The notes: generated by a model from the letters alone, not told the origin. Shown: positions 9,917 to 22,174, numbered from the stretch's first letter. The stretch is 64,000 nucleotides of DNA from Actinomycetota bacterium (GCA_009919275.1 RGCG01000003.1:5455-69454), one strand, 5' to 3'. Translations and numbers: made by a program.

Positions 9917-10622
9917 GGTAACCGATCTCCGAGTCGCCTACGGCAAGATCGAGGCGTTGAAGGGTGTTTCATTCACCGTCAACGAGGGCGAAATCGTGAC
10001 CCTTGTCGGTGCCAACGGTGCCGGCAAGACCACGACCATGCGCACCGTGTCGGGTCTGCGCACGGTCATCGGTGGGTCGATCAAATTCGAAGGCCAGGAC
10101 ATCACCAACATGCCGTCGCACCAGCGAGTGAAGCTGGGCATCTGTCAGTCTCCCGAGGGTCGCGGAATTTTCCCCGGAATGAGCGTCAGGGAAAATCTCG
10201 ACATGGGCACTTACACGCGCGCCGACCACAAGTCGGCCGCGAAGAACGAAGACATGGAACGGGTGATGCACCTGTTCCCGCGTTTGCGCGAGCGCATCTC
10301 GCAGATGGGTGGAACACTCTCGGGTGGCGAACAGCAGATGCTCGCAATCGGACGTGCACTGATGAGCCGTCCGCGTCTCTTGCTGCTCGACGAGCCATCG
10401 ATGGGGCTTGCACCGAAGTTGATCGCCCAAATCTTTTCGATCATCACCGAGATCAACCAGCAGGGGACAACGGTCCTTCTGGTCGAACAAAACGCCGCGC
10501 AGGCGCTGCGCCGGGCACATCGTGCCTATGTGCTCGAAACGGGGAACGTGGTGAAGACCGGCAAGGGGATCGAACTGCTCGACGACCCGGCCGTTCGAGC
10601 CGCGTATCTCGGCGGTCACTAG
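9906..10622 (+). CDS. livF: Branched-chain amino-acid ABC transporter ATP-binding protein (LivF type)
   Basis: [37 protein letters not shown] and LLLDEPSMGLAP are present. The ATG at 9906 is in the frame of the 9879 ORF. Confidence 0.85.
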   Translation: MLLEVTDLRVAYGKIEALKGVSFTVNEGEIVTLVGANGAGKTTTMRTVSGLRTVIGGSIKFEGQDITNMPSHQRVKLGICQSPEGRGIFPGMSVRENLDMGTYTRADHKSAAKNEDMERVMHLFPRLRERISQMGGTLSGGEQQMLAIGRALMSRPRLLLLDEPSMGLAPKLIAQIFSIITEINQQGTTVLLVEQNAAQALRRAHRAYVLETGNVVKTGKGIELLDDPAVRAAYLGGH

Positions 10623-10631
10623 GCTGGTCGC

Positions 10632-11972
10632 ATGACCAGTCTCGAGACACGCCCGTCCGACGCCTTCACCAACGATCGCAAGCACGTCTTCCACTCGTGG
10701 TCGGCACAGGGGCTCATCAACCCCATCGTCGTCGCGGGTGGCCAGGGCGCGTGGTTCTGGGACGACGCGGGGCGTCGTTATCTCGACTTTTCCAGCCAGT
10801 TGGTCAACGTCAACATTGGCCACCAGCATCCCAAGTTGGTGGCGGCCATCAAGGAACAAGCCGATCGCCTGTGTACCATCGCCCCGATTCACGCGAACGA
10901 CGCACGCAGCGAAGCTGCGCGTTTGATCGCCGAGGTCGCTCCCGGCGACCTGAACATGGTCTTCTTCACCAACGGCGGTGCCGAGGCCACCGAAAACGCG
11001 ATGCGCATGGCGCGCCTGCACACCGGTCGCCACAAGATCCTCACGACCTACCGCAGTTACCACGGCGCGACCGCGGGTGCGATCCAGGCAACCGGCGACC
11101 CCCGCCGCTGGCCAAGCGAGCCCGCATCGACGGGTGTTGTGAAGTTCTGGGGCCCGTATCCATATCGCTCGCAGTTTCATTCGCAGAACGAGGCCGAGGA
11201 GTCGCAGCGCGCGCTTCAACACCTCGAAGACGTCATCATGGTCGAGGGCGCGAACAACATCGCGGCGATCATGATCGAGAGCGTGGTCGGTACGAACGGC
11301 ATTCTCGTGCCGCCCCCGGGTTACCTCGCCGGCGTCCGCGCGATCTGTGACCGCAATGGCATCGTGCTGATTTGCGACGAGGTCATGGCCGGCTTCGGTC
11401 GGTGCGGCGAATGGTTCGCAGTCGACCGTTGGAACGTCGTCCCCGACCTCATCTGTTTCGCCAAGGGCGTCAACTCCGGCTACGTGCCCCTCGGTGGAGT
11501 CATCATCTCCGACAAAATTGCGGCAACTTTCCGCGAGCGCCAGTTCCCGGGCGGGCTCACCTACAGTGGCCACCCACTGGCCTGCGCATCTGCCGTTGCG
11601 TCTATCAATATCTTCAAGGAAGAAAAGATCGTCGAGCACGCTCGGCACCTCGGTAACGACATCGTCGGTCCAGAGCTGCAGAAACTGAAGGACAAGCACC
11701 CGTCGGTTGGTGATGTGCGTGGTCTCGGCGTGTTCTGGGCCATCGAGTTGGTGCGCGACCGCGTCACCCGTGAACCGCTGGTGCCGTTCAACGCCGCCGG
11801 CGCCGACAACAAGCCCATGGTCGACCTCATCACCGCCTGCAAGGCCCAGAATCTGTGGCCTTTTACGCACTTCAACCGCATGCACGTCGTCCCGCCGCTG
11901 GTCATCACCGACCAAGAGATGCGCGACGGTCTCGCCATCATCGACGAGGCGCTCAACGTCGCCCCTCGGTGA
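10632..11972 (+). CDS. Class III (omega) aminotransferase. Given its context it is a candidate beta-alanine:pyruvate/2-oxoglutarate aminotransferase.
   Basis: Motifs FFTNGGAEATENA, DEVMAGFGRCG and FAKGVNSGYVPLGG (PLP lysine) are present, and the 446-aa length is typical. Confidence 0.8.
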   Translation: MTSLETRPSDAFTNDRKHVFHSWSAQGLINPIVVAGGQGAWFWDDAGRRYLDFSSQLVNVNIGHQHPKLVAAIKEQADRLCTIAPIHANDARSEAARLIAEVAPGDLNMVFFTNGGAEATENAMRMARLHTGRHKILTTYRSYHGATAGAIQATGDPRRWPSEPASTGVVKFWGPYPYRSQFHSQNEAEESQRALQHLEDVIMVEGANNIAAIMIESVVGTNGILVPPPGYLAGVRAICDRNGIVLICDEVMAGFGRCGEWFAVDRWNVVPDLICFAKGVNSGYVPLGGVIISDKIAATFRERQFPGGLTYSGHPLACASAVASINIFKEEKIVEHARHLGNDIVGPELQKLKDKHPSVGDVRGLGVFWAIELVRDRVTREPLVPFNAAGADNKPMVDLITACKAQNLWPFTHFNRMHVVPPLVITDQEMRDGLAIIDEALNVAPR

Positions 11973-13101
11973 CGATGTCGTTGGTGTATGCCTCTGCGTC
12001 AGGAGCCTTGGTGAGGACGGTCTTGCCCTCGAGGTTCTTCGTCTCCTGAGCAAGTGCTGCGGTGCGGTCCCACGCTGCTGCGTCGATTGCACCCACGCCA
12101 CCGGACGCCGGCCAGATGAGTTTGTTGACTTCGTTCATCTGCCACAGCTGGTGGCTGTTGCCCAACTTCGAACCCTTGGCAACGACGATGTCGCGGCACG
12201 ACTCGGCGTTGTCGCGGCAGTAGGCCCAACCCTTCAGTGAGGCGGCAACGAACTTGACGGCGGTGGCCTTGTAGGCCTCGTCGCTCGCAAGCTTCTCACC
12301 GCTCGCCCAGATGGCATCCTGCAACATGCCCACGCCCTCGGCCTCGTACGAAACGACGTTCAGGTCTTCGGGCTTGTAGAGCTCGCCGGTTTCGGGGTTC
12401 TTCGCCTCGAGAACCTGTGCGTACTCGTTGTAGGTCATTGCTTCGGCAGCATCGATGTCACCGGCGAGAAGCGCGGCCATGTCGAATTGCTGCTGGACGA
12501 GCTCGACGTCCTTTGCGGGGTCGAGACCGGCCTTCGTGAGGGCGGCGAAGATTTCGAACTCGTTGCCGAAGCCCCAGTTACCGATCTTCTTGCCCTTGAA
12601 GTCCGCGGCCGAAGTGATGGCCTTGTCCTTGAACGACACCTGCAACGTGCCCGAGCGCTGGAACACCTGAGCGATGTTCACAATGTTCGCACCGGCCTCG
12701 CGGCTGGCGAGTGCCTTCGGAACCCACGAGAGGGCGAAGTCGACGGCACCGTCGGCCAGCTGCTGCTGGGGAACGATGTCGACGCCGCCTTCGACGATCT
12801 CGACGTCGAGGCACTGGTCTGCGTAGTAGCCCTGGTCCTGTGCGGCGAAGTAGCCGGCGAACTGGGCTTGGATGAACCACTGCAGTTGCAGCTTCACTTT
12901 GGTCGGCTCGGTGCACTCCGCGGCAGCAGCAGCCGTGGTGTCGGCGGTGGCGGTGGTGTCACCGGTCGCCGTCGTCTCCTCGGTTGCGGCCGTGGTGTCG
13001 GCGGTGGATTCGCCCGAATCGTTGTCGTCACCGCATGCCGCGGCAACGAGCGACAGGGCAACGGCACCGACCGCGAGCCTCTTCACTAGACGGTTCTTCA
13101 T
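11953..13101 (-). CDS. NMT1/THI5-like (NitT/TauT-family) ABC substrate-binding lipoprotein
   Basis: I chose the internal ATG at 13099-13101, preceded by GGGAGGAA. The lipobox is SLVAAAC, followed by a T/A-rich linker. The sequence then reads KLQLQWFIQAQFAGYFAA..., typical of this SBP family. It is the last gene of the operon. Confidence 0.8.
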   Translation of the reverse strand: MKNRLVKRLAVGAVALSLVAAACGDDNDSGESTADTTAATEETTATGDTTATADTTAAAAAECTEPTKVKLQLQWFIQAQFAGYFAAQDQGYYADQCLDVEIVEGGVDIVPQQQLADGAVDFALSWVPKALASREAGANIVNIAQVFQRSGTLQVSFKDKAITSAADFKGKKIGNWGFGNEFEIFAALTKAGLDPAKDVELVQQQFDMAALLAGDIDAAEAMTYNEYAQVLEAKNPETGELYKPEDLNVVSYEAEGVGMLQDAIWASGEKLASDEAYKATAVKFVAASLKGWAYCRDNAESCRDIVVAKGSKLGNSHQLWQMNEVNKLIWPASGGVGAIDAAAWDRTAALAQETKNLEGKTVLTKAPDAEAYTNDIVTEGRR

Positions 13102-13169
13102 GTGTGTTGTATTCCTCCCCGCGGGGGTGTCCCGCTGTCTTTGTTTGTTGGTTGTGATGGTCGGGGCGT

Positions 13170-13949
13170 TCATTGTGAACGTCCCGAAGTGCGCTTCGCG
13201 CCGCCGGGTGTAGCGGCGCTCTCCACGATGATGGAGACCAAATAGAACGCAAGGCCCAGGAGGCACGCGCCAAGGACGTAGGCCCAGGCGGCGGCGTTCT
13301 TCGAATTTGCGATGTTGCTCGTGATCCGACTGCCGAGTCCGTTCTGTGCGCCGCCGAAGTATTCGGAGACGAAAGCGGTGATGACCGCCGCGGGTGCAGA
13401 GATCTTGAGGGCGGTGAACAGGTAGGGAATGGCGTTGGGGACCCGCACCTTGCGGAGGATCGCGGACTCCGGGGCGGCGTAGGAACGCATGAGTTCCAGT
13501 TGCGTCGGGCTGACCTGCGTGAGGCCTTTTGCCACGTTGACGAGAACGATGAAGTAGACGACGAGCGTGACCATCAGTCGGCGCGGGATCTCGCTCGTGA
13601 TGCTGTACATGTTGTTGAGGACGGCGACGAGAACGAAGATCGGGATTGCATTCAACGCGATGGCAAGGGGTGTGACAATGTCGCCGAGGATCTTGTATCG
13701 GCTGAGGAGAAAACTCATTGCGATGCCGAGGATGGTTCCGGCGATGAGACCGACGAGGGCGTTGGTTCCCGACACGCGCGTGGCCTCCCAGATGAGGCTC
13801 TTGTTGTTGGCGAACTGGTCCCAGATCTTCGAGGGGGCGGAGAGGAAGTAGGGCTTCAGGTCGAAGATCTTGACGGCGGCCTCCCACCAAGCGACGAAGG
13901 CGACGCCGAACACGATCGGCGGCAGCACGGCGCGAAGGCGGGCAATCAT
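13170..13949 (-). CDS. ABC transporter permease (NitT/TauT family)
   Basis: The protein is multi-TM with an EAA-like loop (ELMRSYAAPESAILRKVRVPNAIPYLFTALK). Confidence 0.8.
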   Translation of the reverse strand: MIARLRAVLPPIVFGVAFVAWWEAAVKIFDLKPYFLSAPSKIWDQFANNKSLIWEATRVSGTNALVGLIAGTILGIAMSFLLSRYKILGDIVTPLAIALNAIPIFVLVAVLNNMYSITSEIPRRLMVTLVVYFIVLVNVAKGLTQVSPTQLELMRSYAAPESAILRKVRVPNAIPYLFTALKISAPAAVITAFVSEYFGGAQNGLGSRITSNIANSKNAAAWAYVLGACLLGLAFYLVSIIVESAATPGGAKRTSGRSQ

Positions 13950-14752
13950 CAGCGGTCCTCGACTCCCGCTCCGGCGTGGGCGTGACCGCCGCCCGCACGG
14001 AGCGCTTCGCGCACGGAGGTGATGGCGGCGAAGAACTCGGGACGCTCGCGGGTGGATTCGTTTCGCTGGCCGTCGAGCTTCACGTCGACGATCTTGGTGA
14101 TGCGACCCGGACGTGGCGACATGACGACCACTCGGTTCGAGAGGTAGACGGCCTCGGGGATCGAGTGTGTGACGAAGACAACCGTCGTACCGGTCTTTGC
14201 GCAGATGCTGAGCAGTTCTGCCTGCATGTGTTCGCGCGTCATTTCATCGAGCGCGCCAAACGGCTCGTCCATGAGGAGCAACGGCGGATGCGCGGCGAGT
14301 GCGCGCGCGATGGCGACGCGCTGTTGCATGCCTCCCGACAACTGCCACGGGAAGTGGCCGGAAAACTCGGGAAGCTTGACGAGATCGAGCATTTCCTTCG
14401 CCCGTGCCTCGCGCTTCGTCTTGTCCCAGCCCTTCAGCTCGAGGGGCAGTTCGATGTTCTTGGAGACCGTACGCCAGTCGAAGAGCCCGGCTTGCTGGAA
14501 GGCCATGCCGTAGTCCTGGTCGAGGCGTGCCTGCTTGGCCGACTTTCCTGCCACAACGACATCACCCGACGTTGGTTCAAGAAGATTTGCTATCAGCCTG
14601 AGGAGCGTCGACTTGCCGCAGCCCGACGGACCGATGAGCGAGACGAACTCTCCCTGTTCGACGGAAAGCGACACGTCGACAAGGGCGTCGACCTGGTTGG
14701 TCTGGCCCTTGTTGAAGATCTTGTTCAGATTGCTGACGTTGACTGTTGACAT
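13949..14752 (-). CDS. ABC transporter ATP-binding protein (NitT/TauT family)
   Basis: GPSGCGKST, LSGGMQQRVAIARAL and LLMDEPFGALD are present. Confidence 0.9.
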   Translation of the reverse strand: MSTVNVSNLNKIFNKGQTNQVDALVDVSLSVEQGEFVSLIGPSGCGKSTLLRLIANLLEPTSGDVVVAGKSAKQARLDQDYGMAFQQAGLFDWRTVSKNIELPLELKGWDKTKREARAKEMLDLVKLPEFSGHFPWQLSGGMQQRVAIARALAAHPPLLLMDEPFGALDEMTREHMQAELLSICAKTGTTVVFVTHSIPEAVYLSNRVVVMSPRPGRITKIVDVKLDGQRNESTRERPEFFAAITSVREALRAGGGHAHAGAGVEDR

Positions 14753-14776
14753 CGTTCGTTCCGTTCTTCCCGACCG

Positions 14777-15655
14777 TTACGTCGCCTCTTTGGGGCGGTT
14801 GCGCATGACATAAAGGTCGAAAGCGGCGACCAGACCGGCCATGGCGAGACCCAGGAGTGCGGCACCGAAGACCGCTGTGAAGACCTTGGCGGGGTCGCCC
14901 GTTGCCTCGCGCGCGTACTCAATGATGAGTCGACCGATGCCACCTTTCAGTCCCGTCGAGATTTCGGCAACTACGACGCCGATGACCGACGCTGACGCTG
15001 CGAGCTTGAAAGCCGGGACCATGAAGGGAATCGCAGAGGGAAAGCGGAGTCGGAAGAGAGTCTGGGTCCACGATGCCGCATACGAGTCCATCAATTCGAG
15101 CGATGCGTGATTGGCCGACGAGAGGCCGCGCAGGGTGCCAACCGCGACGGGAAAGAAGGCCAGAAACGCACCGAGGACCGATGCCGACAGCCATCGTGGC
15201 CATTCGTAGCCGAACACCTCGAGCTTGCCGCCCCAAGAGACGACGAGCGGTGCGAGCGCGATGAGGGGCACCGTTTGGGAAACGACGAGGTAGGGGAGAA
15301 GACCACGCTCGACGACCTTGAAACGAGCCATCAAAGTCGCGAGAAGCACACCAACGGTGGTGCCGATTGCGAATCCGACCAGCGAGAGGCGAAACGAGAA
15401 CCATGCACCGGCAAGGACGACTCGCCAGATTTTGCGTTCGGATGAACGCAGTTCGGGGCGGTTGTACCGCGACAACATGTCCCAGATGTGGGGCATCGCG
15501 CGGTCGTTCGACCGCGGAAGGATGTTGATGCCGAGGAGTGCGCCACCGTCCTCGGGGCCGACGACCTTGTACAGCTCCCACAGGGCGGCGACGAAGAGCA
15601 ACGCAACGACGAACATCGATGACCGACGGACGATGCGTTGCGCGAGGGGGCTCAT
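14777..15655 (-). CDS. ABC transporter permease (NitT/TauT family), second copy
   Basis: The protein is multi-TM with an EAA-like loop (LELMDSYAASWTQTLFRLRFPSAIPFMVPAFK). Confidence 0.8.
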   Translation of the reverse strand: MSPLAQRIVRRSSMFVVALLFVAALWELYKVVGPEDGGALLGINILPRSNDRAMPHIWDMLSRYNRPELRSSERKIWRVVLAGAWFSFRLSLVGFAIGTTVGVLLATLMARFKVVERGLLPYLVVSQTVPLIALAPLVVSWGGKLEVFGYEWPRWLSASVLGAFLAFFPVAVGTLRGLSSANHASLELMDSYAASWTQTLFRLRFPSAIPFMVPAFKLAASASVIGVVVAEISTGLKGGIGRLIIEYAREATGDPAKVFTAVFGAALLGLAMAGLVAAFDLYVMRNRPKEAT

Positions 15656-16668
15656 TGCTTGGCTTTCACCGATTCCGCGAGCATCGGCATGATGCGCTCG
15701 CCGTACGCCTCGAGGGTTGAGTCCTTGCCGTCGTGTTGCAGATAGATGGAGAACTGGTCAACGCCGAGCGCCTCGAGCTCACGCAGTCGCGCAACGTGTT
15801 GCTCGGGGGTTCCGAGGATGCAGAAGCGGTCGACGATCTCATCGGGCACGAACGTGGTGTGACTGTTTCCCGCTCGGCCGTGCTCGTTGTAGTCGTATCC
15901 CTCGCGACCCTTGATGTAGTCGGTGAGGGCCTTTGGAACCTCGGAGTTTTCGCCGTAGCGCGCGACGATGTCGGCGACGTGGTTGCCCACCATGCCGCCG
16001 AACCAGCGGCACTGGTCGCGCATGTGCGCCATGTCGGTGCCCACGTAGGCGGGCGCCGCGACGCAGATCTTCACCGACTTCGGGTCGCGGCCCGCTGCCG
16101 CAGCAGCATCGCGGACCGCCTTGATCGTCCAGGCCGTGATGCTGGGGTCGGCGAGCTGCAGGATGAACCCGTCACCCACCTCACCCGTCAACTGCAGGGC
16201 CTTCGGGCCGTAGGCGGCAACCCAGACTTCGGCGCGGCTCTTGCCTGCCCACGGAAACCGAATTTCCGAACCGTTGTACTGCACACCGCGACCGTTGGCG
16301 AGCTCACGGATGACGTGGATGCTGTCGCGCAGGGTCGCAAGCGTCGTGGGCTTGCCGTTCGTGACGCGTACCGCCGAGTCGCCGCGCCCGATGCCGATGA
16401 TCGTGCGGTTGCCGTACATCTCGTTCAATGTCGCAAAGAGGCTGGCCGTGACGGTCCAGTCACGCGTCGCCGGGTTCGTGACCATCGGACCAACGATCAC
16501 GTTGTTCGTCGAGTCGAGGATTTTCGAATAGATGGGGTAGGGCTCTTCCCACAGAATGTGACTGTCGAAGGTCCACACGTGGGTGAAGCCGAAAGCCTCG
16601 GCTCGCTTGGCGAGTTCGATGACGCGCGCCGCCGGCGGCGTCGTTTGAAGCACGACTCCGAGATCCAT
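15652..16668 (-). CDS. Luciferase-like monooxygenase (LLM) family oxidoreductase, probably F420-dependent
   Basis: The length is 338 aa. The TIM-barrel LLM N-terminus is MDLGVVLQT...AEAFGFTHVWTFDSH, followed by GIGRGDSAVR and YGPKALQLTGEVGDGFILQ. It overlaps the downstream permease by 4 nt. Confidence 0.7.
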   Translation of the reverse strand: MDLGVVLQTTPPAARVIELAKRAEAFGFTHVWTFDSHILWEEPYPIYSKILDSTNNVIVGPMVTNPATRDWTVTASLFATLNEMYGNRTIIGIGRGDSAVRVTNGKPTTLATLRDSIHVIRELANGRGVQYNGSEIRFPWAGKSRAEVWVAAYGPKALQLTGEVGDGFILQLADPSITAWTIKAVRDAAAAAGRDPKSVKICVAAPAYVGTDMAHMRDQCRWFGGMVGNHVADIVARYGENSEVPKALTDYIKGREGYDYNEHGRAGNSHTTFVPDEIVDRFCILGTPEQHVARLRELEALGVDQFSIYLQHDGKDSTLEAYGERIMPMLAESVKAKQ

Positions 16669-16692
16669 GAGATGCCCCCTTTCGATTTTCGA

Positions 16693-18177
16693 CTAGCGGT
16701 TTTGCGGGAAGCCGAGGTCGACCTTTGACGTCCGCGGATCGGGCCAGCGTGACGTGACCACCTTGCTGCGCGTGAAGAAGTTGATTCCCTCGGGACCGTA
16801 CATGTGCTGGTCGCCGAAGAGCGATGCCTTCCAGCCACCGAACGAGTAGTACGACACCGGCACCGGAATCGGGACGTTGATGCCGACCATCCCGACATTG
16901 ATGTCGAACTGGAACTGGCGTGCCACACCGCCATCGCGAGTGAAGATCGCGGTGCCGTTTCCGTACTGGTTCGAGTTGATGAGGTTGACTCCCTCGTCAT
17001 AGCTGGAAACACGCACGACGGTGAGTACCGGACCGAAGATTTCGTCGTCGTAGCAGGCCATGCCGGGCTTCGCGTTGTCGATGAGGCTCGGCTTCAGGAA
17101 GAAACCGTCCTTTGGTGCGCCCTCGCGACCGTCGACCACTACCTTCGCACCCTGGGTGGCCGCGCCCGCAACGTAACCGGCAACTTTGTCGCGGTGCTCA
17201 CCGGTGATGAGCGGACCCATCTCGTTGCCGGGCTCGTCGCCGGGACCCACCTTGATGTTCGGGATGCGCTCCTGAATCTTGCTGACAAGGGAGTCGGCGA
17301 CGGTCTCGTGGGCGAGAAGAACCGAGATCGCCATGCAGCGCTCACCTGCCGATCCGTATGCCGCGCTCACCGCGGCGTCGGCCGCCATGTCGAGGTCGGC
17401 GTCGGGAAGCACCAACATGTGGTTCTTGGCGCCACCGAGGGCCTGCACGCGCTTGCCGTTGCGTGTCCCGGTTTCGTAGATGTACTTCGCAATCGGTGTG
17501 GAACCGACGAACGACACCGCGGCGATGTCGGGGTGTTCGAGCAGTCGATCGACTGCAACCTTGTCGCCGTGAACGATGTTGTAGACGCCGTCGGGGAGGC
17601 CCGCCTGCTTCAGTAGTTCGGCGACGAACATGGTCACCGACGGATCTTTTTCGCTGGGCTTCAGGACGAAAGTGTTGCCGCAGGCGAGGGCGGTCGAGAA
17701 CATCCACATCGGCACCATCGCCGGGAAGTTGAAGGGCGTGATGCCGGCGACGACACCGAGGGGCTGGCGGATGTTGTAGACATCGACACCCGACGAGGCC
17801 TGTTCGCTGTATGAACCCTTCAGCAGGTGGGGAACGCCGCAGGCGAATTCGATGTTCTCGAGCCCACGGGCCACTTCGCCCAAGGCGTCGGAGATGACCT
17901 TGCCGTGCTCGAGCGACAACAAGGAGGCGATTTCCTTGCGGTTGGCGTCGATCAGTTCGCGCAGATTGAACATGATCTCGGCGCGACGCGACAGGTTGGT
18001 CGCCCGCCATGCCGGCAGGGCAGCCTTCGCGGTGGCAACTGCACGGTCGATCTCCGATACATCGGCGAAATCGACTTCGGCCTGCACTTCACCCGTCGCA
18101 GGATTGAAGACCTTGCCCGAACGACCCGATGCTCCGGTAACGACCTTGCCGTCGATCCAGTGGGAAACGCGCTTCAT
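16693..18177 (-). CDS. mmsA: CoA-acylating methylmalonate/malonate-semialdehyde dehydrogenase
   Basis: This is an aldehyde dehydrogenase with the catalytic Cys in GERCMA and the family hallmark VGINVPIPVPVSYYSFGGWKASLFGD. Confidence 0.9.
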   Translation of the reverse strand: MKRVSHWIDGKVVTGASGRSGKVFNPATGEVQAEVDFADVSEIDRAVATAKAALPAWRATNLSRRAEIMFNLRELIDANRKEIASLLSLEHGKVISDALGEVARGLENIEFACGVPHLLKGSYSEQASSGVDVYNIRQPLGVVAGITPFNFPAMVPMWMFSTALACGNTFVLKPSEKDPSVTMFVAELLKQAGLPDGVYNIVHGDKVAVDRLLEHPDIAAVSFVGSTPIAKYIYETGTRNGKRVQALGGAKNHMLVLPDADLDMAADAAVSAAYGSAGERCMAISVLLAHETVADSLVSKIQERIPNIKVGPGDEPGNEMGPLITGEHRDKVAGYVAGAATQGAKVVVDGREGAPKDGFFLKPSLIDNAKPGMACYDDEIFGPVLTVVRVSSYDEGVNLINSNQYGNGTAIFTRDGGVARQFQFDINVGMVGINVPIPVPVSYYSFGGWKASLFGDQHMYGPEGINFFTRSKVVTSRWPDPRTSKVDLGFPQNR

Positions 18178-18193
18178 CTTTTTCTCTTTTCTC

Positions 18194-19618
18194 TCAGTGC
18201 AGGTATTGGCTGAGACCGCGGCGGACGTACTTGCCGTGACCCTTGCGGCCGGTGAACTTGTCGTTTTCCATCACGATCATGCCGCGAGACATGACGGTGT
18301 CGACCTTGCCGTCGATGACCGTTCCCTCCCACGCGCTGTGGTCGGTGTTCATGTGGTGCTTGTCATTGATACCGATCTTGGTTTTCGAGTTCGGGTCCCA
18401 AATGACGATGTCGGCATCGGAGCCGGGCGCGATGATGCCTTTTTTCGGATACATGCCGAACATGCGCGCGGGTGTGGTGCAGCAGGTTTCGACCCAGCGC
18501 TCGAGGCTGATCTCGCCGAGAACGACGCCCTGGTAGATGAGCTCCATGCGGTGCTCGACTCCGGCGATGCCATTTGGAATCTTCGAGAAGTCGCCCATGC
18601 CGAGCTCCTTCTGATCCTTCATGCAGAAGGGGCAGTGATCCGTGGACACGATGGCGAGCTCGTTCATCCGCAGGCCCTTCCACAGGTCCTTGTGGTGATG
18701 TCTGTGATCGTGCTTCGAGCGGATGGGCGGGCTGCAGACGTACTTCGCGCCCTCGAAGCCGGGCTGGGCAAGATGATCTTCGAGCGTCATGTAGAGGTAT
18801 TGCGGGCAGGTTTCGGCAAAGACGTTGAGTCCCTCGTTCTGGGCCTGTGCCACTTCGTCGAGCGCCTCGGCCGCTGACATGTGCACGATGTACAGCGGAA
18901 CGTTGCCCGCAACCTTCGACAGGACAATTGCGCGGTGGGTGGCCTCGCCTTCGAGAAGGCTCGGTCGGCTGATCGAGTGGTACTTGGGATCGGTCTCGCG
19001 GCGTGCGAGGTGTTGGGCCACCAACACGTCGATGGCGATGCCGTTTTCGGCGTGCATCATGATGACGGCGCCGTTCTCGCTTGCGGTTTGCATCGCGCGC
19101 AGGATCTGACCGTCGTCGCTGTAGAAGACACCCGGGTACGCCATGAACAACTTGAATGACGTGACGCCTTCGTGTTCAACGAGATAGGTCATGTCCTTCA
19201 GCGATTGCTCGTCGATCCCTCCGATGATCTGGTGGAATGCGTAGTCGATGGAACAGTTGCCCTCGGCCTTGCGGTGCCACGTCGCAAGACCGTCCTGCAC
19301 GTTTTCGCCGTAGCGCTGCAGCGCCATGTCGACGATGGTGGTGATGCCGCCCCACGCCGCAGCATTGCTGCCGGTCTCGAACGTGTCGGAAGCTTCCGTG
19401 CCGCCGAAGGGCAATTCCATGTGGGTGTGGACATCGATGCCGCCAGGGATGATGTACTTGCCCTTGGCGTCGATGGTGCGATCGGCCGTGACGCCGAGCG
19501 CGGCAACTTGGCCGGGTTGGAAGATTGCCGCGATGGTTTCGCCCTCGACGAGGACATCCCCGGCGCTGAGGCCCGTCGGGCTGATGATCGTTCCGTTGAC
19601 GATGAGTGTGCGTGCCAT
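18194..19618 (-). CDS. Dihydropyrimidinase / D-hydantoinase (cyclic amidohydrolase)
   Basis: GGIDVHTHME (HxH), SFKLFMAY (carbamylated Lys region), MHAENG and VSTDHCPF are present. The length is 474 aa. Confidence 0.9.
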   Translation of the reverse strand: MARTLIVNGTIISPTGLSAGDVLVEGETIAAIFQPGQVAALGVTADRTIDAKGKYIIPGGIDVHTHMELPFGGTEASDTFETGSNAAAWGGITTIVDMALQRYGENVQDGLATWHRKAEGNCSIDYAFHQIIGGIDEQSLKDMTYLVEHEGVTSFKLFMAYPGVFYSDDGQILRAMQTASENGAVIMMHAENGIAIDVLVAQHLARRETDPKYHSISRPSLLEGEATHRAIVLSKVAGNVPLYIVHMSAAEALDEVAQAQNEGLNVFAETCPQYLYMTLEDHLAQPGFEGAKYVCSPPIRSKHDHRHHHKDLWKGLRMNELAIVSTDHCPFCMKDQKELGMGDFSKIPNGIAGVEHRMELIYQGVVLGEISLERWVETCCTTPARMFGMYPKKGIIAPGSDADIVIWDPNSKTKIGINDKHHMNTDHSAWEGTVIDGKVDTVMSRGMIVMENDKFTGRKGHGKYVRRGLSQYLH

Positions 19619-19633
19619 GTTTCCCCCTTGTGG

Positions 19634-20488
19634 TCAGCCGCCGAGGCGGCTTTCGATCAGGTCGTTGTAAGCGTCGGGACGACGGTCTCGGTAGAACGCC
19701 CAGCGGTCGCGGACCTGTTTGATCTTGTCCATGTCGAGGTCGCGCACGATCAGTTCGGGCTTGTACGGGTCGCCGACTTCCCCGACGAACTTGCCCTCGG
19801 GATCGACGAAGTAGGACTGGCCGTAGAAATCGTTCTCGCCCAGCGGCTCAATGCCGACGCGGTTGATTGCGCCGACGTAGTACATGTTGGCGACAGCTGA
19901 TGCCGGCTGTTCGATGCGCCAGAGATACTCGGAGAGGCCGCGGTGCGTGGCGGACGGGTTGAAGACGATTTCGGCGCCGTTCACGCCGAGCGCACGCCAG
20001 CCCTCGGGGAAGTGCCGGTCGTAACAGATGTACACACCGACCTTGCCGACTGCAGTCTGGAAAACGGGGTAGCCGCCGGTGCCGGGCTTGAAATAGAACT
20101 TCTCCCAGAAGCCCTTCACCTGCGGAATGTGCTGCTTGCGGTACTTGCCGAGATACGTACCATCGGCGTCGATCACTGCGGCTGTGTTGTAGTACACGCC
20201 GGGCTGTACCACCTCGTACATGGGGAGTACCAGCACCATGCCGAGTTCCTTGGCGACGCTTTGGAAGCGCTGCGTGGTGGGGCCGTCGGGGATGTACTCG
20301 GTGTACGAGTAGTACTCGGCGTCCTGCACCTGGCAGAAGTACGGCCCGTAGAAGAGCTCTTGGAAGCACATCACCTGGGCTCCCTGCTTCTTTGCCTCAT
20401 GGGCAGCAGCCTCGTGCTTGTCGATCATGGCCTCTTTCGAACCGGGCCAGTCGGTCTGCAACAGAGCTGCCCGTACAACGTTCGCCAT
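19634..20488 (-). CDS. Nitrilase-superfamily N-carbamoyl-beta-alanine amidohydrolase (beta-ureidopropionase-like)
   Basis: The CN-hydrolase triad context is present: CFQELF (Glu), YRKQHIP (Lys) and ICYDRHFPE (Cys). It is the first gene of the operon. Confidence 0.8.
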   Translation of the reverse strand: MANVVRAALLQTDWPGSKEAMIDKHEAAAHEAKKQGAQVMCFQELFYGPYFCQVQDAEYYSYTEYIPDGPTTQRFQSVAKELGMVLVLPMYEVVQPGVYYNTAAVIDADGTYLGKYRKQHIPQVKGFWEKFYFKPGTGGYPVFQTAVGKVGVYICYDRHFPEGWRALGVNGAEIVFNPSATHRGLSEYLWRIEQPASAVANMYYVGAINRVGIEPLGENDFYGQSYFVDPEGKFVGEVGDPYKPELIVRDLDMDKIKQVRDRWAFYRDRRPDAYNDLIESRLGG

Positions 20489-20610
20489 CTCGCGAATTCC
20501 TTCCCCTTTGAGCGCCGAAACGGAGGCTTTACGATTTGTTCAGCCTCACGTACGTCATAGTAGTGACACATTCGAGGGCGTCGAAATGGCTCGCGCGGGA
20601 AGGGCTGAAG

Positions 20611-21030
20611 GTGAACGAAAACGCAAAACTGCCGAAACAGTTCCGGTTGTCGACCAACGCCGAACGGATCTTGACCGAGGCTGTCACGGGGACCCTGTGC
20701 ATCGTCGATGGGCGGGGAGCGCCGAATGCGACCCCGGTGTGGTTCTTGTGGCAGAACGGCACGCTGGTCGTGAGCACCCGAGCCGGCCGCCAAAAGCACG
20801 TCAATGCGCTGCGGGCCGGGTTCGGGTCATTCAGCGTCGTCGACCCGACGAACGAGTCGAACTACGTCGAACTGAGGGGAGTGCTGACGGTGGTGGACGA
20901 CCCCGACTACGCCCTGCGTGATGCGATCGTTCGAAAGCACGGTCACGCCGACGGCTCGGCGTTCGACCCACCGGGCACGCATCGGATCGCGATCGTTCTC
21001 ACCCCCGAACGTGCGCTCGGGCGTAACTGA
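20611..21030 (+). CDS. PPOX-class (pyridoxamine-5'-phosphate-oxidase-like) split-barrel protein, probably F420-dependent
   Basis: GTLCIVDGRGAPNATPVWFLWQNGTLVVSTRAGRQKHVNAL...YVELRGV is typical of the family. The GTG at 20611 gives 139 aa. The ORF track's ATG at 20536 is the alternative start. Confidence 0.65.
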   Translation: MNENAKLPKQFRLSTNAERILTEAVTGTLCIVDGRGAPNATPVWFLWQNGTLVVSTRAGRQKHVNALRAGFGSFSVVDPTNESNYVELRGVLTVVDDPDYALRDAIVRKHGHADGSAFDPPGTHRIAIVLTPERALGRN

Positions 21031-21042
21031 GGCAATAGCCGT

Positions 21043-21591
21043 CTACTTCTTCTTCGCTTTTTCCGCGGCACGGCGTGCCTTGCGTGCCTCGCGCTTTGCA
21101 GCTTGGGCCGCCTCGTCGACGACGCGAAGCTGGGCGGCCGGACTTTGAGACACGGGAAGCGTGAATCGCTCGTCGGTTGCGATGAGCTTTTTGAAGCCCT
21201 GAAGCGACAGTGAGTATTGGATTGCCATGAGCTTCACCATGTCGAGGCCGAACTTCTCGGTCACGTCGGGAAGGATCGCCTGAAGGTCGTCGAGCGTCGG
21301 ATCATCGGATGCGGATCCCAGAACGTCGATGCAGTGTCGGGTGCACGGCTCGCACAAAACGACGCACACGTCGCCGGCGCACCGCCGGCGTTGGGCTCCT
21401 TCGCGAATGCGGGCAGCAAGGGTCGACTCGTCGTCGTACGCGGCCGCGCCGAGACCCGCGACCTGCGCGAGCACATCGCGCAGTTCCTCTTCGAGAGCGA
21501 GAGCCGCCGAGGTGAGCGATTCATCGCTGAGGGCCGCAAGAGCGTTCACAAAGCGACGCTCGAGAATGATCGATTCACGCGAAGATGTCAC
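21043..21591 (-). CDS. Hypothetical protein with a Cys cluster and a Lys/Ala-rich basic C-terminal tail
   Basis: The ORF has actinobacterial codon usage. The Cys cluster is CAGDVCVVLCEPCTRHC and the tail is AAQAAKREARKARRAAEKAKKK. I did not recognise a family. The start (GTG at 21589-21591) is uncertain. Confidence 0.5.
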   Translation of the reverse strand: MTSSRESIILERRFVNALAALSDESLTSAALALEEELRDVLAQVAGLGAAAYDDESTLAARIREGAQRRRCAGDVCVVLCEPCTRHCIDVLGSASDDPTLDDLQAILPDVTEKFGLDMVKLMAIQYSLSLQGFKKLIATDERFTLPVSQSPAAQLRVVDEAAQAAKREARKARRAAEKAKKK

Positions 21592-21636
21592 GTGTCGATT
21601 GTATTCATCGATTCGGTGCGCTGATAGTTTCGCGAC

Positions 21637-21993
21637 GTGAGCGTGAGGATCGAGCCATCCGATGTTGCGCGGGTCGTCGCACGCAGGCCGTACGCGTACG
21701 TCGTCACGGCAACCGACGACGCACGACCTCACCTGAGGGCGGTCGTGCCCACGTGGTCAGCGTCGATCGCGGCCTTCACCGTGCGCGTGGGTTCTCAGAC
21801 GTCGACGAATGTCGAACGATCCGGAACGGTGACACTGATGTGGCCGCCCATGGCGATTGCGGAGCAAGCGCAAGAATTCGATGACCACACGGTGATTGTC
21901 GACTGCGACGCGAAGTGTTCGCCCAACGGTGACTCGTTCGAATTGTCGGCAACGCCTTCACGCGCGGTGTGGCATCGCCCCGCACGGGCATGA
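21637..21993 (+). CDS. Small PPOX-like / split-barrel flavin- or deazaflavin-binding protein (tentative)
   Basis: The length is 118 aa. [21 protein letters not shown]...TVTLMWPP...AVWHRPA resembles the family. The call is weak. Confidence 0.45.
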
Positions 21994-22174
21994 CGGAGCC
22001 ACTCGCGTGGTGTTGCGGAGTGAGGTCGACTACAGCGGTCGGACCCGAGACGAGCGTGCGCCGACCGGTTCCCTGGATGTTGGAGAAGTGGACGAAGATG
22101 TCGTCGCCATCCTCGCGGGAGATGAAGCCGTAGCCCTTCTCATCGTTGAAGAACTTCACGGTACCGATTGGCAT
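21776..22174 (-). CDS. csp: Cold-shock-domain protein with a non-canonical C-terminal extension
   Basis: [37 protein letters not shown] carries RNP-1 (KGYGFI) and RNP-2 (IFVHF). There is no stop at the usual position (about 67 aa), and the ORF runs to 132 aa, antisense to the 3' end of the 21637-21993 gene. Confidence 0.7.

Follow-up and report, generated by a model that had tools for sequence, protein, structure and literature searches.

The window analysed here, a stretch of 64,000 nucleotides (nt) from an Actinomycetota bacterium (GCA_009919275.1, RGCG01000003.1:5455-69454), contains a minus-strand operon of eight co-directional genes (11953-20488) and a convergent aminotransferase gene. 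Judging from the sequence data, the operon probably serves the uptake and reductive degradation of uracil and thymine. No canonical enzyme for the first step, the reduction of the pyrimidine ring, is encoded in it, and we hold with moderate confidence that this step would be carried out by a luciferase-like monooxygenase (LLM) class protein of the TIGR03842 family acting as an F420H2-dependent reductase. The source assembly is a metagenome-assembled genome (MAG) of 2.18 Mb in 237 contigs with a completeness of 87.6%, and the window is located on its contig C113. The locus comprises the following features, in the direction of transcription of the operon.

20489-20570, minus strand: probable promoter and 5' leader (-10 box TACTAT at 20557-20562, hairpin at 20523-20547)
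19634-20488, minus strand: CN-hydrolase, probable beta-ureidopropionase (N-carbamoyl-beta-alanine / N-carbamoyl-beta-aminoisobutyrate amidohydrolase); PF00795, 220 bits
18194-19618, minus strand: dihydropyrimidinase, PydB-type cyclic amidohydrolase; TIGR02033, 535 bits (cut-off 393)
16693-18177, minus strand: CoA-acylating malonate/methylmalonate-semialdehyde dehydrogenase; TIGR01722, 710 bits (cut-off 448)
15652-16668, minus strand: LLM-class oxidoreductase, candidate F420H2-dependent uracil/thymine reductase; TIGR03842, 593.4 bits (cut-off 295.45)
14777-15655, minus strand: permease of an ATP-binding cassette (ABC) importer; PF00528, weak matches to the SsuC, SaoP and NtrB models
13949-14752, minus strand: ABC importer ATPase; PF00005, best matches to SaoA, TauB and NtrCD-type models, all below cut-off
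13170-13949, minus strand: second ABC importer permease; PF00528
11953-13101, minus strand: NMT1/ThiY-type lipoprotein substrate-binding protein, probable pyrimidine binder; PF09084, 126 bits, signal MKNRL...AAC
10632-11972, plus strand: class III omega-aminotransferase, probable beta-alanine / beta-aminoisobutyrate transaminase; PF00202, 317 bits, and NF004718, 757 bits

Profile matches and gene layout bear out the operon content given in a first-pass annotation of this DNA. The genes are spaced by -4 to +24 nt with one wider gap of 68 nt ahead of the binding-protein gene, and the stop of the LLM gene shares 4 nt with the start of the downstream permease. The binding-protein gene has its true start at 13101, where the MKNRL... 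lipoprotein signal begins, although the mechanical open reading frame (ORF) extends to 13998. The coordinates 10632-11972 and 11953-13101 likewise confirm that the class III aminotransferase gene is convergent and overlaps the 3' end of the binding-protein gene by 20 nt.

The LLM covers the TIGR03842 profile (CPS_4043 family) end to end (positions 1-329 of 329), is the single member of this family in the source genome and has PF00296 as its only Pfam match. The next-best NCBIfam matches are the Mer models TIGR03555 (128.7 bits, cut-off 348.7) and NF002619 (138.8 bits, cut-off 276), while the Fgd model scores 45 bits; 17 of the 18 top NCBIfam matches are F420-class LLM models, and no RutA model is found among the 25 matches at E <= 0.001. 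The family profile can be aligned with the Mer structures over the full length (192 bits). An AlphaFold model of the LLM (pLDDT 89.1, pTM 0.88) shows the best fold agreement with the Mer-F420 complexes 8qpl and 1z69 (TM 0.77-0.80), and its 17 top fold matches in the PDB are all F420-dependent LLMs, ranking ahead of any FMN-dependent LLM. In both sequence and fold the closest characterised relative is Mer, a consumer of F420H2, which a published phylogeny places in the F420H2-consuming 'reductase' branch of the F420 LLMs (PMC6279831). The earlier description of the protein as luciferase-like and probably F420-dependent is well in line with a full-length TIGR03842 member having Mer as its nearest characterised relative.

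The LLM is not Mer itself, as the scores are far below the equivalog cut-offs and Glu6 of Mer pairs with a valine, and an identity as RutA was rejected because no RutA model matches. LLM and Mer have a VTNP motif, a GxGxGD motif and an early histidine in common. The valine was seen in the profile alignment to 8qpm and 8qq8; Glu6 is the residue changed in the E6Q structure 8qq8, and we infer its catalytic role from the title of that entry. A conserved segment specific for TIGR03842 (about residues 215-265, RWFGGMVGNH...YDY..H) takes the place of the Mer sequence, which has a 10-residue gap there. R217, R221, W222, F223, N229, H230, R255 and D259 are invariant in this segment, which, in analogy to other LLMs, is probably part of a substrate lid. 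Ilumatobacteraceae and further Acidimicrobiia from freshwater and rivers carry the closest homologues of the LLM, and in a tree of 29 family members the clade of the window obtains a support of 100/99.

A genome-wide search for a canonical first enzyme agreed with the observation that PydA and PreTA are absent. The source assembly contains one gene of the DHO_dh family (PF01180), which is the PyrD gene adjoining carB and gmk (NF005574, 312 bits; PreA model, 88 bits, cut-off 335), and no PreA/PydA-type gene was found in this 87.6% complete assembly. As the MAG is incomplete, other genomes carrying the cluster were examined as well. PreA did not pass the cut-off in any of 30 such genomes, which include ten cultured strains (Leifsonia, Agromyces, Microlunatus, Salinibacterium, Microbacterium, Cellulomonas); the top score, 123 bits, belongs to a PyrD-like gene, and E. 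coli, included as a control, is above the cut-off. Of 401 evenly sampled Actinomycetota genomes, two have a PreA match above the cut-off, and both of them are without the LLM. In addition, no homologue of E. coli PreT/PreA was found within 10 kb of the LLM at 100 loci.

As a side observation, eight genomes (G012, G013, G019, G020, G021, G022, G027, G030) have a DHO_dh-like gene (50-70 bits with the PreA model) near an ORF of about 1100-1360 amino acids that matches solely the iron-sulphur (Fe-S) part of PreA. These could represent a 2-oxoacid:ferredoxin oxidoreductase with a PyrD-like partner, unlinked to the pyrimidine cluster.

Gene neighbourhoods were surveyed at 80 genomic loci with an LLM of 72% identity or more, and the 401 genomes were searched with TIGR03842 and TIGR02033, the latter counted at E <= 1e-100. 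Since related genomes are not independent, all counts are descriptive and not statistical. A CN-hydrolase gene is found upstream of the LLM in 66 of the 80 loci, a dihydropyrimidinase gene in 65, and ABC genes are found downstream in about 60; the exceptions to this layout are mostly contig ends. The semialdehyde dehydrogenase is present at 51 loci and the aminotransferase at 37. Among the 401 genomes, 88 have TIGR03842 and 124 have TIGR02033. A dihydropyrimidinase is present in 85 of the 88 LLM genomes, the other three being assemblies of 350-600 contigs, and in about 70 of these 85 both genes are on one contig and no more than 15 kb apart. The tallies contain two genomes flagged as unpublished, G118 (LLM, dihydropyrimidinase and CofH) and G150 (dihydropyrimidinase and CofH, no LLM), and five more (G031, G078, G346, G422, G428) were included in the CofH search only; dropping all of them shifts the counts by few and leaves the conclusions the same.

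The partners also recur in other arrangements. A second subclade (47-50% identity) has the order LLM, CN-hydrolase, aminotransferase, dihydropyrimidinase and dehydrogenase, or is divergent from the transporter, with the same partners in either case. At six loci an NCS1 'cytosine/purine/uracil/allantoin' permease is found instead of the ABC importer, and at four an M20 amidohydrolase instead of the CN-hydrolase, with the LLM kept throughout. A metagenomic relative at 41% identity lies in a row of NMT1-ABC, amidohydrolase, LLM and CN-hydrolase genes with an aminotransferase further on, and in a relative at 42% identity the LLM is translationally coupled to the CN-hydrolase. At nearly all loci with sufficient flank, dihydropyrimidinase and a carbamoyl-amidohydrolase are thus encoded in linkage with the LLM.

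A different arrangement was seen on one metagenomic contig (L108, 1646-6759), where a 43%-identical LLM lies beside a second LLM of 446 amino acids, an isochorismatase-family protein and an amidase, which recalls pyrimidine ring opening of the RutA/RutB type.

The source genome has genes for an F420 supply, which agrees with the suggested use of F420: FbiC is present as a fusion (465 bits), CofD is divided between the ends of two contigs, and Fno, the NADPH:F420 oxidoreductase, scores 178 bits (cut-off 150). Fgd was not found in this genome.

In the proposed pathway, the NMT1/ThiY-type ABC system would import the base, and the TIGR03842 LLM would reduce its C5=C6 double bond with a hydride from F420H2 to form dihydrouracil or dihydrothymine. 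In this role the LLM would replace the non-homologous flavin mononucleotide (FMN)/Fe-S dihydropyrimidine dehydrogenase (PydA, PreT-PreA). Dihydropyrimidinase would open the ring, the CN-hydrolase would release NH3, CO2 and beta-alanine or beta-aminoisobutyrate, the class III aminotransferase would recover the second nitrogen, the semialdehyde dehydrogenase would yield acetyl-CoA or propionyl-CoA, and Fno would regenerate F420H2 from NADPH. The F420H2-dependent pyrimidine reductase hypothesized in the first-pass annotation is supported by the conserved linkage, the absence of PreA, the enzyme class and the F420 genes. We infer the substrate, direction and cofactor of the LLM, and likewise the ligand of the transporter. 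The further proposal that TIGR03842 constitutes a third class of dihydropyrimidine dehydrogenase, non-homologous to the others and using F420H2, seems to us about evenly balanced.

The remaining components of the pathway bear on the question of which ring is degraded. The nearest structures to the CN-hydrolase are the N-carbamoylputrescine amidase 5h8i (203 bits) and the animal beta-ureidopropionases 2vhh, 8pt4 and 6ftq (169-181 bits), whereas D-carbamoylases reach about 100 bits. It scores 247 bits with the AguB equivalog model (cut-off 410), and since no equivalog model is passed the assignment as beta-ureidopropionase rests on context. The solved structures closest to the binding protein are 4nmy and that of ThiY (3ix1), which binds a pyrimidine. 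The aminotransferase is nearest to the taurine:2-oxoglutarate aminotransferase 6jix (380 bits), an enzyme for short omega-amino acids, and its substrate is probably beta-alanine or beta-aminoisobutyrate. Aminotransferase and semialdehyde dehydrogenase together fit these two compounds, into which uracil and thymine are degraded.

The literature on Mycobacterium smegmatis points in the same direction. According to Petridis et al., a reductive uracil pathway is induced there upon nitrogen limitation, and they note that its first-step gene has not been identified (PMC4617892). The supplement of that study lists three genes in a row which are upregulated under nitrogen limitation: MSMEG_3553 (phenylhydantoinase, 2.95-fold), MSMEG_3554 ('N5,N10-methylene-tetrahydromethanopterin reductase', 1020 nt, 339 amino acids, 2.54-fold) and MSMEG_3555 (beta-alanine synthase, 1.9-fold). 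Both GlnR and MtrA bind the msmeg_3553 promoter (PMC13718301). MSMEG_3553-3555 is the apparent counterpart of the cluster, with MSMEG_3554 linked to the LLM by annotation, size and position. Our literature search found no paper linking F420 to pyrimidine reduction, and a 2021 review on F420 does not mention the breakdown of uracil, hydantoin or pyrimidines (PMC8498797).

It is conceivable, if unlikely, that the LLM belongs to the pathway but acts on another ring, such as a modified pyrimidine, the precursor of a 5-substituted hydantoin or an imported cyclic ureide, so that uracil and thymine would not be the physiological substrates. D-hydantoinase activity is also found among TIGR02033 enzymes, carriers for hydantoin and allantoin occur in the same family as the NCS1 permeases of the variant loci, and PucR-type 'purine catabolism' regulators are found at the large-genome loci L115 and L116. 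Moreover, a putative F420-type LLM acting on a purine-derived ring was proposed for Chloroflexota in 2025 (PMC12507026). However, the methylmalonate-semialdehyde dehydrogenase and the omega-aminotransferase suit beta-alanine and beta-aminoisobutyrate, the CN-hydrolase resembles beta-ureidopropionases more closely than D-carbamoylases, and the nearest relative of the binding protein is a ThiY that binds a pyrimidine. In addition, M. smegmatis reportedly degrades uracil itself by the reductive route with no first enzyme identified (PMC4617892).

Less probable still is a position of the LLM further downstream, as an F420-dependent malonate-semialdehyde / 3-hydroxypropionate oxidoreductase, or a side role in detoxification or redox balance, with the first step being carried out by an unlinked and unrecognised enzyme or bypassed via the import of dihydropyrimidines. 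A malonic semialdehyde reductase does occur in some Pyd variants (literature summarised in PMC7332683), and the fold matches of the LLM include F420 LLMs acting at the alcohol, ketone or aldehyde level (Adf, Fgd, hydroxymycolate dehydrogenase). In sequence, however, the LLM groups with Mer (129-139 bits) and not with the dehydrogenase branch (Fgd, 45 bits), and a downstream role would be redundant at the 51 of 80 loci with a semialdehyde dehydrogenase beside the LLM. At three loci (L119, L121, L126) the LLM is kept with dihydropyrimidinase and CN-hydrolase in the absence of both aminotransferase and dehydrogenase, which places it in the upper, ring-opening part of the pathway. The importer for dihydropyrimidines, which had been offered as an alternative in the first-pass annotation, leaves the strict retention of the LLM unexplained, and free dihydropyrimidines are not known as abundant environmental substrates.

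The distribution of F420 genes is relevant for the cofactor of the proposed pyrimidine reductase. CofH is found at E <= 1e-80 in 73 of the 88 LLM genomes; the other 15, closed genomes among them, have no CofH/FbiC match, and no CofH-like gene was found in five of these that were rechecked at E <= 1e-5. CofD is intact in 13 of the 15, present as a fragment in one and missing in one. An intact CofD without CofH fits a salvage of the FO headgroup, which weakens the case for another flavin in some members without removing it. It is very improbable that the LLM uses FMN or another flavin, in some lineages at least, and might then be an oxygenase resembling RutA or a reductase that draws on NAD(P)H together with a partner. 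In favour of this reading are the 15 genomes without a match to the FO synthase (several of them closed), a branch in a species without F420 according to the NCBIfam family text, and the fact that the pyrimidine-ring opener RutA is likewise an LLM. Against it are the CofD genes consistent with FO salvage, the F420-class models that dominate the NCBIfam matches at E <= 0.001 with no RutA model among them, the F420 enzymes that make up the 17 top fold matches, and the strictly co-occurring dihydropyrimidinase, which a ring opening of the RutA type would render superfluous.

A CofD gene was observed at a distance of 6-12 kb from the cluster in G360:C1 (L117), G371:C1 and G218:C9 and at the loci L060, L070, L074, L077 and L078. 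G360, G371 and G218 have no CofH/FbiC match, and G218 has a cofD fragment only. In some of the genomes that lack CofH but have an intact CofD, the gene is 8-12 kb away from the cluster. This suggests that FO salvagers keep their F420 tailoring genes close to the operon. At loci of the Microbacteriaceae type an iron-siderophore ABC system and an EF-G gene lie between cofD and the cluster; the proximity may be mere synteny and is not counted as functional evidence.

Several observations weigh against an F420H2-dependent pyrimidine reductase. TIGR02033 occurs without either LLM or PreA in 39 of the 401 genomes. In those LLM-less genomes outside the order of the window that were examined, this TIGR02033 protein represents a distant subtype (36-40% identity) whose gene lies in other contexts; a 'slot' for an alternative reductase was not evident there. 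Seven loci (L034, L042, L044, L048, L053, L062, L065) have CN-hydrolase, LLM and ABC genes with no adjoining dihydropyrimidinase; in four of five genomes with this variant layout that were checked the dihydropyrimidinase is 4.5-57 kb off or on another contig, and in the fifth, G019, none above the cut-off was found. The absence of a gene from an 87.6% complete MAG is not proof. As Glu6 of Mer is replaced by valine, the chemistry of Mer is not simply transferable to the LLM. The reduction of C=C bonds by F420H2 is best known from split-barrel FDOR enzymes and not from the LLM class, and our literature search found no paper that assigns a function to the TIGR03842 family. Finally, the family as a whole is not uniform in function. 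At 42% identity or less, the tree intersperses relatives that have a linked dihydropyrimidinase with others from unrelated contexts, so that the former do not make up an exclusive clade, and the distant representatives P0149, P0161 and P0167 have unrelated gene contexts (the contigs of P0128 and P0162 are too short for judging). As the deep members are mixed in this way, the function is claimed solely for the clade of the window and the linked subclades.

The known dihydropyrimidine dehydrogenases are PydA, which uses NADPH, PreT-PreA, which uses NADH, and the clostridial PydAc, which uses ferredoxin (PMC7332683). The proposed reductase would catalyse the same reaction at the same point of the pathway, and would have operon partners of the same kinds (dihydropyrimidinase, a probable beta-ureidopropionase, a probable beta-alanine aminotransferase and semialdehyde dehydrogenase). 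However, the LLM is not homologous to them, being a TIM barrel (PF00296) instead of a PyrD-family FMN domain (PF01180) with 4Fe-4S clusters, and its proposed donor F420H2 would hand over a hydride directly, where the known enzymes pass electrons from NAD(P)H or ferredoxin along an internal chain. Unlike Mer (1z69, 8qpl), the LLM is found in aerobic actinobacteria inside a pyrimidine operon. With the Pyd clusters of Bacillota and Proteobacteria, the window cluster has the dihydropyrimidinase, carbamoyl-amidohydrolase, omega-aminotransferase, semialdehyde step and probable pyrimidine transporter in common, whereas its first enzyme would be a replacement and its importer is of the NitT/TauT ABC type, with a binding protein resembling ThiY. 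The uricolytic LLM of Chloroflexota resembles our proposal in that an F420-type LLM is thought to replace a PyrD-family ring reductase (YgfK/UacX) beside a cyclic amidohydrolase, but it concerns another pathway and another phylum and is likewise a proposal (PMC12507026). What is new here would then, in our moderately confident estimate, be a known pathway with a non-homologous first enzyme.

If this is true, the LLM would fill the acknowledged first-step gap in actinobacterial uracil degradation, for instance in M. smegmatis (PMC4617892), in a phylum where PreA-type genes were seen in two of 401 genomes. The scavenging of pyrimidine nitrogen would depend on F420 in about one fifth of the sampled Actinomycetota, including M. 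smegmatis and the abundant freshwater Acidimicrobiia, and those Acidimicrobiia that are abundant in lakes and rivers may recycle nucleobase nitrogen by this route. Lineages with cofD but without an FO synthase would depend on FO from their neighbours. F420 would obtain a role in ordinary nutrient metabolism, and the two kinds of reductase would be a clear example of unrelated enzymes doing one job. In addition, a single-subunit, Fe-S-free ring reductase would be a candidate for the production of dihydropyrimidines and beta-amino acids.

Two palindromes ahead of the operon had been suggested as operator sites. Both are present, ACGTACGT at 20548-20555 and GTCA-n6-TGAC at 20554-20567, but neither holds up as an operator. 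ACGTACGT is not conserved in relatives whose LLM is 94-98% identical and was rejected for this reason. GTCA-n6-TGAC encloses the TACTAT box at a position where many relatives have a TAnnnT box at the same distance to the start codon, and is therefore better read as bracketing a probable -10 box of the promoter. Consensus scans of the operon for promoters and terminators gave nothing above shuffled controls. The leader hairpin on the minus strand (20523-20547) consists of GAGGCT, a 13-nt loop GAACAAATCGTAA and AGCCTC; in L015 and L017 the stem is changed to GAGGGG/CCCCTC while the loop is unchanged. The assignment of promoter and hairpin draws on four close sequences and is to be taken as putative, and no Rfam family was found in 10000-22000.

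In contrast to many relatives with a MocR/GabR-type or PucR-type regulator, the lineage of the window has no adjoining regulator gene. A divergent MocR/GabR-type regulator is found at 27 of the relatives' loci, and a PucR-type regulator at others. The MocR/GabR-type loci share the motif TTGTCC (or TTGTAC), 4-6 nt, ACAAT, 6-8 nt, ATTGT, directly upstream of the TAnnnT box, as seen in the 160 nt upstream of the CN-hydrolase gene at L024, L031, L032, L037, L039, L045, L046, L057, L059, L061 and L090. This motif is probably the operator of the MocR/GabR-type regulator. Neither regulator nor motif (the latter sought in 20489-20650) was found in the window or its three nearest relatives, suggesting that this lineage has lost both.

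The divergent PPOX gene at 20611, which had been noted earlier in connection with the operon, is not a conserved part of the system. Its ORF scores 72.5 bits, just short of the NCBIfam cut-off of 79.05, and a PPOX gene accompanies the cluster at three of the 80 related loci, and on both grounds its membership was rejected. Five other loci have a different gene of the PNPOx type in common.

In two runs of riverine metatranscriptomes, assembled contigs cover 25 of 30 bins of the region 10600-20650, where presence in an RNA library is not proof of transcription, most pieces derive from relatives and uncovered bins are uninformative. A few pieces are 99-100% identical to the window, one of them within the LLM gene. 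Over the binding-protein gene (11944-12951) the contig depth in these two metatranscriptomes reaches about 720, compared with 0-18 elsewhere in the region, most of it contributed by relatives of 90-95% identity.

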